Source of the DNA: Escherichia coli
GTDB lineage: Bacteria > Pseudomonadota > Gammaproteobacteria > Enterobacterales > Enterobacteriaceae
Reading direction: 5' to 3' (one strand)
Length of the DNA stretch: 64,000 nt
Assembly: GCF_041248615.1 (NCBI RefSeq)
Contig: NZ_CP158426.1
The stretch's first letter is position 1. The number at the start of each line of letters is the position of its first letter. Below are positions 39,501-45,087 of the stretch, one piece after another. A program made the position numbers.

Positions 39501-42500
39501 CGGCAGGTACGGCAGCGGGCTTTACCGGGCTGTTTGGTTACCTGGGCGGTTCGGTGGCGGCGAGCGCGATTGTTGGCTACACCGTGGACTTCTTCGGCTG
39601 GGATGGCGGCTTTATGGTAATGATTGGCGGCAGCATTCTCGCGGTTATCTTGTTGATTGTTGTGATGATTGGCGAAAAACGTCGCCATCAGGAATTACTG
39701 CAAAAACGCAACGGAGGCTAATGGCATGAAATTGACGCTAAAAAACCTTAGCATGGCGATCATGATGAGTGGAATGATCATGGGAAGCAGTGCAATGGCG
39801 GCGGATAGCAACGAAAAAATAGTCATCGCCCATCGCGGTGCCAGTGGATATTTGCCGGAGCATACGCTGCCAGCAAAAGCGATGGCGTATGCGCAGGGAG
39901 CGGATTATCTGGAACAAGATTTGGTGATGACCAAAGACGACCATCTGGTTGTCCTGCATGACCATTATCTCGATCGTGTTACTGATGTTGCCGATCGTTT
40001 CCCGGATCGGGCGCGCAAAGACGGTCGTTACTACGCGATAGATTTCACGCTCGATGAAATTAAGTCACTGAAATTTACCGAAGGTTTCGATATTGAAAAC
40101 GGTAAGAAAGTACAGACTTATCCGGGGCGTTTCCCGATGGGTAAGTCCGACTTCCGGGTGCACACCTTTGAAGAAGAGATTGAATTTGTTCAGGGGTTAA
40201 ATCACTCTACCGGGAAAAATATCGGTATCTATCCAGAAATTAAAGCGCCGTGGTTCCATCATCAGGAAGGGAAGGATATTGCGGTAAAAACGCTGGAAGT
40301 GCTGAAGAAATATGGTTACACCGGTAAGGACGATAAAGTTTATTTGCAATGTTTTGATGCTGATGAGCTGAAGCGTATTAAGAAAGAGCTGGAACCTAAA
40401 ATGGGCATGGATCTCAATCTGGTACAGCTGATTGCCTATACCGACTGGAATGAAACGCAGCAGAAACAGCCGGACGGAAGCTGGGTTAATTACAACTACG
40501 ACTGGATGTTTAAGCCGGGAGCCATGAAACAGGTGGCGGAATATGCAGATGGTATTGGTCCGGATTATCATATGTTGATTGAGGAGACATCGCAGCCAGG
40601 TAATATCAAACTCACTGGCATGGTGCAAGATGCTCAGCAGAATAAACTGGTAGTACATCCTTACACCGTGCGGTCAGATAAGCTGCCTGAATACACTACT
40701 GATGTGAATCAGTTATATGATGCTCTGTATAACAAAGCGGGTGTAAATGGGCTGTTTACTGATTTCCCTGATAAGGCAGTAAAATTCCTAAATAAAGAGT
40801 AATGCTACTGCAGGATGGCGTTCATGCGCCATCCTGTCTCATATCAAATTTTCCACTCTCCACTAATTGTTCTGTGCACATTTGTAGTAAAAACAGTGGA
40901 CTGCCTTCTACCGGCTTTTCTTTAGCCAGCAACGAAATCTGTCGATAGAAGGTTGGTTCGAGAGGAACGGAACACAATTCATCTGCAATGGTTTTCAGCG
41001 TTAACTCTGGTAATAAGGCGATGCCTAATCCCTGTCGAATAAAACTGATCGCTGTATCCGGGTGATTAAATTCATATTTTATCTGTGGGGTAATATTCTT
41101 TTCTTTAAATAGTGCCATAATGCTTAATTCATAGCGTCCTTTACTAATAATTAATGGTTCACCCATTAACTCTTCCACTGTAATAGTGCTGTTTTTTGCC
41201 AGAGCATGGTTGGGCGGTAACACTACGGTGAATTTATCCTGATAAATGGGCACGGAGTACATTCCGCTCACCGGAAAATGAACAAAACCGGCATCAATGG
41301 ATTCATTCTGAAGGGAATCAATAATCGCTGTGCTATTTTCCTCAAAAGGAATAATTTTTATATTCGGATGATGAATTTCAAAGTAGCGAATCACAGCCGG
41401 TAAGATACAGGCGCAGACGCTGGGGAAACAACCAAGTCTCAGCGTTCTTTGAGGGTTCTGCTTTTCCTGCTCGGCTATCTCTTTTACTGCGTTCACTTCC
41501 CGATTAATGGCGCGCAGATGATGCACAATGCGATGACCTGCTGCGGTCAGTTGTATAGCTTTACGGCGATCGCGTAACAGTATACTCACGCCAAGTTCTT
41601 GTTCGAGGGCAGCAATTGCCTGACTTACCGCCGACTGCGTCATGAACAATCGCTTGCTGGCTTCAGTAAAGCCACCGTAATCCAGCACGGCGAGTAAAGA
41701 ATTTATTTGAGTAAGAGTCATTAGAGTTTGCTAATCAATAATATTAAAACGATTAATTTCTCTAATAGCGTGCCGCCATTTATACTTCTGTTCTGCAAAG
41801 TACATCACAATTTGACGCAACCGCAGTAACGGGAGTGTTGTCTGCGTGCGTCATCCTGACAGGCGGTAGGGTATGAAAGAGAAGTTATGGACGAAGGATT
41901 TTTGGGCAATAACCATCATCAGCTTTATTATTTTCTTCGTCTTTTATGTTTTACTAACATTGTTGCCAATTTATATCTCAGACCGCTTGCATGCCTCTCC
42001 TGATAAAGCAGGTTTGTTGGTGACTTTATTTTTAATTGCCGCCATTGTTATTCGCCCCTTTGCCGGGCAATGGGTAGGTAAATATTCGAATAAAACTATT
42101 CTGGGGCTCTCTTCTCTGGCCTTTTTGGTGGTCACTGCGCTGTATCCTTTTTGCCACTCAATTGAATCACTGCTTTTTATTCGGGTGCTTCATGGTATTA
42201 CCTTCGGGGTTATCACTACGGTAAAAGGAACGATTTCCGCGCGGCTGATCCCGGCCTCCCGACGTGGGGAGGGCATCAGTTTTTTCTCTCTGGCAATGGG
42301 GCTGGCAATGGTGGTCGGGCCGTGGATTGGTCTGAATATGGCGCGCTGGGAAGCCTTTAATCTGGCTTTCTGGCTATGCACCGGCGTGGCAGCAGTGGGG
42401 ATTATTCTGTCGCTGATTATGACAGTGCCGCCGGTTATCAGCCATGCTGATGGTTCAACGCCGAAAATGGGCTTCGCCGCCATGTTCGATCGCGCGGCGT

Positions 42501-45087
42501 TGCCATTTGCGATGGTCACCTTTTTTATGACCTTTTCGTATGCCGGGGTTTCTGCTTTTCTGGCGCTTTATGCACGCGAACTTAACCTGATGTCGGCAGC
42601 CAGTAATTTCCTGCTTTGCTACGCTATCTTCCTGATGATCTGCCGTACCTTTACCGGCAATGTCTGCGACAAAAAAGGACCGAAATATGTGGTTTACCCT
42701 TGCCTTGTGTTCTTTACGGTAGGACTGGTGGTTCTCGGCTACACCCAGGGAAGCATAATGATGGTTGTTTCTGGCGCATTGATTGGTATCGGGTATGGTT
42801 CCGTGACGCCAGTTTTTCAGACGCAGATTATCAGTTCAGTGGAACCGCATAAAATCGGTGTCGCAAACTCCCTCTTCTTCAATGCGATGGATGCAGGCCT
42901 GGCGCTGGGAGCCTGTGTGATGGGGATGATGGTTGCACATACTGGCTACCGAATGATTTATCTGCTGGGTGCACTATTAGTGGTAGTGGCTGGTGGAGTC
43001 TATGCGCTGCAAATGAAGGGTAAAAGCGGTGTCGCGCTAGTAGTGGCAAAAGAAATTCATTAATACGACACGTTTCATTAAGATTTTTCGCAGGTAACCA
43101 CCTATAGTCATTGTCGTTAATAAAAAATGACAGGCGATAGGGTATGGCAGTTTCAGCAAAGCACGACGAATTTAATCACTGGTGGGCAACAGAGGGCGAC
43201 TGGGTTGAAGAGCCTAACTATCGCCGTAATGGTATGAGCGGGGTGCAATGCGTCGAGCGCAACGGCAAAAAGCTATATGTAAAGCGCATGACGCATCATC
43301 TGTTTCATTCCGTACGTTATCCGTTCGGCCGACCAACGATTGTCCGTGAGGTTGCGGTAATTAAAGAACTGGAACGGGCTGGTGTCATCGTGCCGAAGAT
43401 TGTTTTTGGTGAAGCGGTGAAAATTGAGGGGGAATGGCGCGCGTTGCTGGTGACTGAAGATATGGCGGGGTTCATCAGCATTGCTGACTGGTATGCCCGG
43501 CATGCAGTAACGCCCTATTCTGACGAAGTACGGCAAGCCATGTTGAAAGCAGTGGCGCTGGCGTTTAAGAAAATGCATAGCGTTAATCGTCAGCATGGCT
43601 GTTGCTATGTTCGCCATATCTATGTGAAAACAGAAGGTAAGGCAGAAGCTGGATTTCTTGATCTGGAGAAAAGTCGTCGCCGCTTGCGTCGCGATAAAGC
43701 GATTAATCATGACTTCCGCCAGCTGGAAAAATATCTGGAGCCGATCCCCAAAGCGGACTGGGAGCAGGTGAAAGCGTATTACTACGCCATGTAATCGTTG
43801 TAGGCCAGATAATACGCGTAATGAACTGCACCCCAAATGTTGGACATAATCTGACATCTGAAGGTGCAGTTTATGAAACATTCATTTGAAGTAAAACTTG
43901 CCGCTGTAAATCATTACCTGGCTGGTCATGCAGGCATCATTTCTACGGCAAAACTCTTTCAACTTTCTCACACCAGCCTCTCACACTGGATTAATCTTTT
44001 TCTTCTTCACGGTCCTCGGGCACTGGATTGCAGACACAAGCGTAGCTATTCTCCTGAAGATAAACTTTGCGTGGTTCTTTATGCTCTCGGGCATTCTGAG
44101 TCTCTACCCCGGGTAGCTGCCCGGTTTAACATTCCCAGCCACAACACGGTTAAAAACTGGATAAAAGGCTACCGCAAATCTGGTAATGAGGCCTTTATCA
44201 GGCGCAGGAAGGAGAAAAGCATGACCCGTTCTGATGATACCCATGAAAACGAGGCAAACATGACGCCGGAAGAGATGAAGAATGAGCTGCGTTATCTTCG
44301 CGCAGAAAATGCATATCTGAAAGCCATGCAGGAGCATCTCCTGGAAAAAAAGCGCCAGGAGCTGGAGAAAAAACGAAAGTCATCCGGAGCCTGAGGTGCG
44401 GACACTGCCAGTCTGACCTGTTAAAGGCTGCAGGGCTGGCCAGAAGCACGCTGTACTACCAGCTGTCACTGCAGAAGGCTAAGGACAAGTATGCTGATGT
44501 GAAACAGCTCATAGCCTCCATCTTCCATGAACACCGGGGATGTTATGGGTACCGGCGGATCCATTGTGAGCTTCAGAAAAGAGGTCTTAAGTTCAGTGGC
44601 AAAACAGTGCGAAAACTGATGCAACAGCTCGGCCTGAAGTCTCCTGTGCGCCTGAAGAAATACCGGTCTTACCGGGGAAATATGGGACTCGCTGCAGAAA
44701 ATATCCTTCAGCGGCAGTTCAAAGCGGAAGCTCCCTGTGAGAAATGGGTGACAGATATCACCGAATTCAGGGCTGGCGGACAAAAACTGTACCTGTCTCC
44801 GATACTTGATTTGTTTAACGGGGAAATCGTGGCGTGGGAAACGGCCTGCAGGCCTACAGAGGAGCTGGTGAAGCGCATGTTAAATAAGGGGCTGGAAAGC
44901 CTTGCTGAAGGGGAGAAACCGCTGCTCCACAGTGATCAAGGATGGCATTACCGGATAAAAAGTTATCAGTCCGCCCTGGCGGACAGAGGGTTAGTGCAGA
45001 GCATGTCGCGCAAGGGCAACTGCCTTGATAATGCGGTAATGGAGAACTTCTTTGGTCACCTGAAAGAAGAAATGTACTATCGCCGGG

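Follow-up and report, generated by a model that had tools for sequence, protein, structure and literature searches.

Classical divergently organized LysR pairs include BenM-benA, CbnR-cbnA and CynR-cynTSX. The locus analyzed in this study is located between the glpQ and inaA genes of Escherichia coli, within a 64,000-nucleotide (nt) stretch of contig NZ_CP158426.1 (RefSeq assembly GCF_041248615.1), referred to below as the window, and is comprised of a gene encoding a LysR-type regulator of transcription and a gene encoding a transporter of the major facilitator superfamily (MFS). It shares with the classical pairs the divergent orientation of the genes, a T-N11-A dyad adjacent to the regulator gene, a putative operator of approximately 50 bp, helically phased half-sites and a predicted weak target promoter. 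The target in the classical pairs is a catabolic operon, whereas in this case it would be a lone transporter gene.

The closest described counterpart of the locus is O-island 97 of E. coli O157:H7 EDL933, which was traced by a literature search with the old EDL933 locus tags. This 2,006-bp region encodes (i) an MFS protein with a YfcJ-like motif (MFS_YfcJ; z3494) and (ii) a LysR-type regulator (z3495) (Wang et al. 2024, PMC10819331). Z3495 was described as an activator of the virulence genes of the enterocyte effacement locus (LEE), acting through rcsF in O157:H7: deletion of z3495 lowers LEE transcription, adherence to HeLa cells (3.4-fold) and colonization of mice, whereas deletion of z3494 leaves adherence, LEE expression and colonization unaffected (PMC10819331). 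The protein does not bind the LEE promoters, but the rcsF promoter is shifted in an electrophoretic mobility shift assay (EMSA) and enriched 3.5-fold in chromatin immunoprecipitation (ChIP)-qPCR (PMC10819331). The same study called the regulator laterally acquired, listed ST2747 among the E. coli carriers and reported orthologs in Citrobacter, Salmonella and Klebsiella (PMC10819331).

The gene pair of the window is O-island 97, and is thus already known. The arm of the z3495 deletion primer (PMC10819331) maps to positions 41719-41759 with no mismatches, and that of the z3494 deletion primer to 41833-41872 with a single mismatch; the two arms fall at opposite edges of the spacer. Nucleotide sequence identity with EDL933 is 98.2% for the LysR gene and 95.6% for the MFS gene, while ST2747 and the window show 100% identity throughout the pair. 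The gene order, glpQ-(hypothetical)-LysR<>MFS-inaA, is the same in EDL933; however, that strain possesses a third gene (1.7 kb, 32% GC) between glpQ and the LysR gene, which is missing from the window, and its regulator has 292 amino acids (aa) rather than 299 aa. We consider it likely that the pair constitutes a self-contained module, in which an effector-sensing LysR protein controls both itself and an adjacent proton-coupled exporter.

Organization of the glpQ-inaA locus

A preceding inspection of the window without database searches (the sequence-only reading) had indicated an intact divergent LysR/MFS pair between glpQ and inaA. This observation was confirmed: both open reading frames (ORFs) were found at the predicted coordinates (Table 1), and their Pfam domains agree with the assignment. 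The pair is flanked by glpT-glpQ on one side, and by inaA followed by yfaE-nrdB-nrdA on the other. Also correct was the statement that strain K-12 carries only a decayed yfaH, since the glpQ-inaA gap of MG1655 is a 207-bp yfaH pseudogene, as was the placement of the pair near gyrA and the arn operon, which are approximately 12 kb and 16 kb away, respectively, in the near-identical strain ST2747 (this is map proximity, nothing more). The earlier interpretation of the pair is supported by the results presented below. What it overlooked is the catalogued identity with O-island 97, together with the 2024 study of the regulator (PMC10819331), and the terminal frameshift behind the length of 299 aa.

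Table 1. Features of the glpQ-inaA locus; positions are those of the window
Feature	Position	Strand	Basis
Segment that the total-loss allele (1,058 genomes) lacks	40803-43044		Comparison of loci
LysR-type regulator gene, Z3495 ortholog	40822-41721	-	299-aa ORF; Pfam HTH_1 and LysR_substrate
Out-of-frame ancestral stop codon (TCA on the plus strand, 40844-40846) by the T4 run 40849-40852	40844-40852	-	3'-end alignment
Segment (1,879 bp) deleted from K-12 and from 3,132 of 5,426 genomes	41086-42964		BLAST of K-12 and fS25a against the window; junction sequences
Extended conserved putative operator with five TAAT-like half-sites	41720-41767		Sequence reading; column conservation
Half-sites ATTAG, CTAAT, ATTAA, TTAAT and CTAAT	41720-41724, 41731-41735, 41743-41747, 41753-41757 and 41763-41767		
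Divergent intergenic control region (151 bp)	41722-41872		Between the two ORFs; cross-genus alignment
ATTAA-N5-TTAAT dyad ATTAAAACGATTAAT, holding a LysR-type box (T-N11-A); putative core site for regulator binding	41743-41757		
TATACT, candidate -10 sequence of the MFS promoter, without a good -35 sequence	41781-41786	+	Cross-genus conservation
Conserved block ATCACAATTTGACGCA (ATCACA-N4-GACGCA)	41804-41819	+	Conservation 0.86; TCACA invariant in 25 of 25 sequences
Second conserved leader block TGCGTGCGTC	~41844-41853		Cross-genus alignment
MFS transporter gene, Z3494 ortholog	41873-43063	+	396-aa ORF; Pfam MFS_1

The intergenic control region

The ATTAA-N5-TTAAT dyad that had been noticed in the spacer was found again, and is perfect in 23 of the 25 aligned spacers, with one mismatch in each of the other two; its distance to the LysR start codon is constant. 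The mean column conservation of the dyad (0.96) may be compared with that of the segment 41722-41768 (0.83), the next 35 bp (0.63) and the unconserved stretches of the spacer (0.56-0.68). The dyad is retained even in an allele of O145:H28 whose LysR gene is only 77% identical at the nucleotide level. Within the window it is the sole match to ATTAA-N5-TTAAT (0.06 expected), one match being obtained in 6 of 100 shuffled sequences, and this window-wide uniqueness is by itself marginal.

The five half-sites of the extended conserved sequence around the dyad are spaced 10-12 bp apart, which places them on one face of the helix. The length and phasing of this sequence are as expected of the footprint of a LysR tetramer, and we read it as a probable footprint of this kind. 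The spacers of the Firmicutes relatives of the pair (see below) are unrelated in sequence to the enterobacterial operator.

The block TTTATACT, which corresponds to the candidate -10 sequence of the MFS promoter, is kept in Escherichia, Salmonella and Citrobacter; other genera have TATAAT-like variants. The poor -35 sequence would be expected, because the promoter is predicted to be activator-dependent. A sigma-70 consensus scan of the spacer revealed no promoter with at least 9 of 12 matches.

Two further blocks (Table 1), located in the presumed leader of the MFS gene, are conserved over ten or more genera, and the DNA between them ranges from approximately 25 to approximately 100 bp. A leader RNA stem or riboswitch formed by GACGCA (41814-41819) and TGCGTC (41847-41852) was considered and rejected, as RNAalifold predicted 0 pairs for 23 sequences. 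The fold of the window leader (z = -0.68) gave no indication of a conserved RNA structure, and Rfam yielded a single, insignificant match, to the unrelated Yar_1 family (E = 0.47; 19.2 bits, with a gathering score of 50). A CRP half-site was also considered for the invariant TCACA; with a left half that is poor and unconserved, this candidate was discarded.

The LysR-type regulator

The regulator contains an N-terminal helix-turn-helix (HTH) domain, HTH_1 (PF00126, E = 2.6e-18, residues 3-63), and an effector-binding domain, LysR_substrate (PF03466, E = 5.5e-37, residues 88-267). As judged from the sequence, these two domains, the length of approximately 300 aa and the T-N11-A dyad in the divergent spacer place the predicted protein within the LysR family. 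The HTH is its best conserved part (0.84 vs. 0.78 for the effector domain). Full-length sequence matches in the PDB were obtained with CysB, BenM and OxyR, and the best full-length profile similarities were to the Gram-positive regulators GltC, CidR and AlsR, all of them far under the cut-off.

The sequence-only reading had described a full-length LysR protein of 299 aa. The length and domains are as described, but this length is specific to the allele of the window and results from a terminal frameshift: in a comparison across 26 loci, the regulator has 292 aa in 21 of the 25 others, which is the usual size. Alignment of the 3' ends of the regulator genes with those of K-12, fS25a, S1-SRL-01-C, E. 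whittamii and Escherichia sp. E1V33 revealed that the plus-strand T4 run at 40849-40852 is a T5 run in other alleles, i.e. one nucleotide was lost from a run of five A residues in the coding strand. This 1-nt deletion bypasses the normal stop codon, converting the C-terminus from ...GKI* to ...GKFDMRQDGA* and adding 7 aa. The final codons of the extended ORF overlap the glpQ terminator-like hairpin (CAGGATGGCG-TTCA-TGCGCCATCCTG; 40806-40835) of the opposite strand, which encodes the seven extra residues. The sole original residue altered is the last one, and all domains are intact. The exact 299-aa protein was found on 634 contigs, and it therefore represents a true allele and not a sequencing error.

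The MFS transporter

The product of the second gene, predicted earlier to be a 12-helix MFS protein of 396 aa, gave a match to MFS_1 (PF07690, E = 1.6e-58), and an AlphaFold2 model built on 40 homologs (pLDDT 90.7, pTM 0.87) contains the 12 helices, arranged as 6+6 and split by a loop at residues 183-209. The top structural match of the model is NorA (TM-score 0.84/0.89, 17% identity), and the top sequence matches in the PDB are NorA and a sugar efflux transporter (entry 6kki).

An arginine of helix 4 (RxxxG, motif B) and a Gly-Pro pair of helix 5 (motif C) are motifs of proton-antiport exporters. Both were identified in the transporter, as R104-V-L-H-G108 in helix 97-125 (helix 4) and G149-P150 in helix 128-158 (helix 5), and both are invariant in the 40 homologs. 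Motif A (GxxxD[RK]xG[RK][RK]) is represented in the loop between helices 2 and 3 by the degenerate sequence G65-QWV-G-K-YSNK, and there is a good copy, G262-NVC-D266-KKG-PK, in the equivalent loop of the second half of the protein.

None of the curated models of NCBIfam reaches its cut-off for the transporter. The nearest are those of YfcJ/YhhS (PRK05122 / PRK12382), CntE and a generic multidrug-resistance model, which mostly describe known or putative exporters (scores of 109.6 vs. a cut-off of 374 bits, 84.7 vs. 364 and 72.2 vs. 235). The protein is thus a distant relative of YfcJ/YhhS, and not a member of this group. The YfcJ/YhhS-like proteins, CntE and NorA share with the transporter the 12-helix MFS fold, the helix-4 Arg and the helix-5 Gly-Pro, whereas the enterobacterial transporters form a cluster of their own, with one neighbor cluster at 55% identity and all others at 37% or less. 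No substrate can be transferred from YfcJ/YhhS, CntE or NorA.

The search for homologs of both proteins thus provided named distant relatives (NorA, YfcJ/YhhS and CntE for the transporter; GltC, CidR and AlsR for the regulator), but not a close characterized one: wide homolog searches and curated families contained none for the transporter, all names given by the sources being generic. A function of the transporter was found neither in the literature nor in curated families, and literature searches for yfaH and the Salmonella locus tags STM2280/STM2281 returned nothing on function. Inspection of approximately 30 loci of Enterobacteriaceae and Firmicutes revealed no catabolic enzyme genes beside the pair, the only neighbors being genes for universal stress proteins (Usp), MarR or response regulators. 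Export appears more likely than uptake, because of the exporter relatives, the invariant motifs B and C, and this lack of accompanying catabolic genes.

Conservation and origin of the pair

A cross-species scan, with one genome per species, yielded 38 loci. The pairing of a LysR regulator with an adjacent target gene, inferred earlier from the layout in the window, recurs throughout: the LysR gene divergently adjoins the MFS gene in all 24 enterobacterial loci, which represent at least 10 genera, as well as in relatives from Neobacillus (34-36% identity). The loci originate from cryptic lineages of Escherichia, E. whittamii, Salmonella (arizonae, diarizonae), Citrobacter, Kluyvera and Klebsiella spallanzanii, and also from Pseudocitrobacter, Superficieibacter, Phytobacter and Pluralibacter. 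The pair occupies the slot by yfaE-nrdB in 23 of the 24 loci, and most of these have glpT and/or glpQ at its other end; in Leminorella it is present in a different context. The ratios of nonsynonymous to synonymous substitution rates in comparison with eight species are 0.05-0.09 (LysR 0.05-0.08, MFS 0.05-0.09), indicating that both genes are under strong purifying selection.

The G+C content of the LysR and MFS genes is 43% and 48.5%, respectively, and that of glpQ is 45%. Recent horizontal acquisition was considered on the grounds of base composition and rejected, since these values are not far from that of glpQ and the synteny argues against it. The pair is ancestral to the Enterobacteriaceae and has been repeatedly deleted, and is not an acquired island; this follows from the cross-genus synteny, the 3' ends of both genes kept in K-12 (see below) and the near-normal base composition. 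In this respect our reading differs from that of z3495 as laterally acquired (PMC10819331), as the synteny and the deletion scar indicate an ancestral locus that was lost from K-12.

The next relatives of the transporter are found in Firmicutes (55%, then at most 37% identity). In Desulfosporosinus, an MFS protein with 55% identity is paired with a LysR-type protein of 25% identity, while in Neobacillus the MFS gene (34%) is divergent from a LysR gene (36% identity). The closest transporter relatives outside the Enterobacteriaceae, at 55% identity, are those of Desulfosporosinus and Bacillus. A gene for a universal stress protein follows the MFS gene in Neobacillus and Bacillus, and the Usp and MarR neighbors in Firmicutes are typical of stress or efflux contexts. 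The relationship may be the trace of an old transfer between Firmicutes and Enterobacteriaceae.

Allelic states of the locus in E. coli

Three states of the locus were distinguished in 5,426 complete E. coli genomes, accounting for 5,417 of them. The spacer and the MFS gene are present in 1,227 genomes, and the intact pair is therefore not carried by most E. coli but by only 22.6% of the complete genomes; carriers include O157:H7, O55:H7, SMS-3-5, an ST69 strain and ST2747. The K-12-type junction was counted with a junction probe in 3,132 genomes, K-12 and O104:H4 being in the deletion state. In the remaining state (1,058 genomes) both genes are totally lost, and glpQ and inaA are separated by approximately 103 bp of unrelated sequence. 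The two genes are lost jointly in E. coli (1,219 vs. 1,227 genomes). Thus, two separate deletions have removed the pair from about 77% of E. coli.

The K-12-type deletion is bounded by 8-bp direct repeats TTTATCTG, located at 41078-41085 and 42957-42964. What is left in K-12 is the LysR 3' end together with the terminal 99 bp of the MFS gene; the K-12 state therefore results from a deletion internal to the pair. In comparison with the window, which is complete, K-12 lacks the first ~212 codons of the regulator, the operator and the MFS gene save this terminal part. The yfaH pseudogene (b2238) is the 3' remnant of the LysR gene, in the same glpQ-inaA position, and the match of its NCBIfam model (YfaH, 68 aa) to the window regulator covers residues 226-291.

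The 1.7-kb segment (32% GC) of EDL933, with an ORF for a hypothetical protein of 368 aa, separates the glpQ terminator from the LysR stop codon in 1,046 genomes, EDL933 included. Its insertion point corresponds to 40832-40835 of the window. Neither the window nor any outgroup genus has the segment, which therefore represents a later, derived insertion. In some strains it is frameshifted and in others disrupted by the insertion sequence IS1, sometimes alongside the K-12-type deletion.

A mosaic allele was identified in O145:H28 strain 12E115, in the region equivalent to 40822-42080 of the window. Nucleotide identity to the window is only ~77%, about a Salmonella-like distance, over the LysR gene, the spacer and the initial ~200 bp of the MFS gene, and rises to 90-100% in the remainder of that gene and in the flanks (flanks 96-98%); the ORFs and the dyad are intact. 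The donor lineage was not among the loci compared. About 83 complete genomes fall into the 80-90% identity class, and the ~80 others of this band probably carry the same divergent allele as O145:H28.

Proposed mode of action and alternative explanations

The module may be envisaged to function as follows. The Z3495 ortholog of the window would bind as a tetramer to the putative operator, with the ATTAA-N5-TTAAT dyad as its core. Since the operator begins at the start codon of the regulator gene, the bound protein would cover its own leader or promoter, and would in this way repress its own transcription. Upon binding of a small-molecule effector, the regulator would switch on the divergent MFS promoter, which is predicted to be weak. 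The MFS protein, a 12-helix distant relative of YfcJ/YhhS, CntE and NorA, would then act as a proton antiporter of the drug/metabolite-exporter type and expel the effector or a related compound.

Several points weigh against this interpretation. Deletion of z3495 has a phenotype and deletion of z3494 has none (PMC10819331), and the regulator therefore has transporter-independent effects. The C-terminus of the regulator is altered in the allele of the window. A consensus sigma-70 promoter was not detectable in the spacer, and the dyad could be centered at approximately -43 or approximately -65 with respect to the MFS transcription start, depending on the true position of the latter. As regards the transporter, motif A appears degenerate in its first half, and there are weak profile matches to symporter families. 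Furthermore, the MFS fold does not fix the direction of transport, and the symporters or exchangers MCT1, OxlT and DgoT are among the structural matches of the model.

The regulator might instead serve mainly in global or virulence control at distant promoters (rcsF and, via the Rcs phosphorelay, LEE), with the MFS gene as an uncontrolled neighbor. We regard this as unlikely, in spite of the LEE, adherence and colonization phenotypes of the z3495 mutant, the EMSA shift and ChIP-qPCR enrichment of the rcsF promoter, and the lack of a z3494 phenotype in the same assays (PMC10819331). The rcsF fragment used in the EMSA contains no ATTAA-N5-TTAAT sequence within 2 arm mismatches. The table of ChIP regions (Supplementary Table S4, PMC10819331) lists 97 regions with a log2 enrichment of only 1.18-1.80, many of them over highly expressed genes (dnaK/dnaJ, ompA, ompC, pflB, ptsH). 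Its coordinates fit K-12 (glpA ~2,352,683) and not EDL933 (glpA ~3,170,338); as the table thus appears from our reading to be K-12-like, scoring of O-island sequences, the spacer of the regulator itself among them, would not have been possible. Moreover, the pair and its operator are kept in Kluyvera, Superficieibacter, Phytobacter and Pluralibacter, and the pairing also in the Firmicutes relatives. To our knowledge, these four genera are not LEE-carrying pathogens. Distal effects do not in any case exclude local control, and both roles can coexist.

That the MFS protein is a symporter for nutrient uptake, induced by the regulator when its substrate is present, seems quite improbable. This would agree with the habit of LysR regulators, which often induce uptake and catabolic genes, with the partial profile matches, which are to the aromatic acid/H+ and galactonate symporter families, and with a fold and Pfam domain that leave the direction undefined, symporters and exchangers being found among the structural matches. 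It is less easily reconciled with the absence of catabolic enzyme genes by the pair in the ~30 loci, with the nearest curated families and solved sequence relatives, which are known or putative exporters, and with the invariant helix-5 Gly-Pro antiporter motif. A module in decay in this strain, as the frameshifted 3' end of the regulator gene could suggest, is very hard to credit. The 1-nt deletion does remove the normal stop codon and append residues from the glpQ terminator hairpin, and 77% of the complete E. coli genomes are already devoid of the pair; however, a change confined to the last residue, with the domains intact, the presence of the 299-aa protein on 634 contigs, which marks a stable lineage allele, and the intact MFS ORF and operator all argue against decay. 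A local sensor-exporter module remains the reading that we prefer.

Implications

As a discovery the pair is of little importance: its genes are annotated in thousands of genomes, the O-island catalogue of O157:H7 already includes the locus, and a virulence phenotype of the regulator has been published. The finding that the "island" is ancestral, and that K-12 is the deletion mutant, corrects the reading as a lateral acquisition and shows the K-12-centered bias of O-island catalogues. The published rcsF target lacks the operator and the ChIP analysis was blind to the native site; the conserved operator offers a precise and cheap test of the predicted control of z3494 by Z3495.

More speculatively, and we put this forward with considerable doubt, the pair could be an ancient sensor-exporter module for a compound of the gut or environment, whose regulator in enterohemorrhagic E. 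coli (EHEC) also feeds the signal into the Rcs envelope-stress response and thereby to LEE. If this were true, the two independent deletions, which affect 77% of complete genomes, would reflect selection against the module in some niches, and identification of the effector would bring to light a new cue, from host or diet, for colonization by EHEC.

An insertion sequence in the inaA-yfaE spacer

The short inaA-yfaE spacer of the window contains a copy of IS1397 (IS3 family; ~43798-45271), with ORFs at 43864-44394 and 44499-45221. Among the 5,426 complete E. coli genomes, only two, NZ_OW967178.1 and NZ_LT599825.1, have the same insertion. ST2747 lacks IS1397 at this site and carries a copy between ubiG and yfaL instead.

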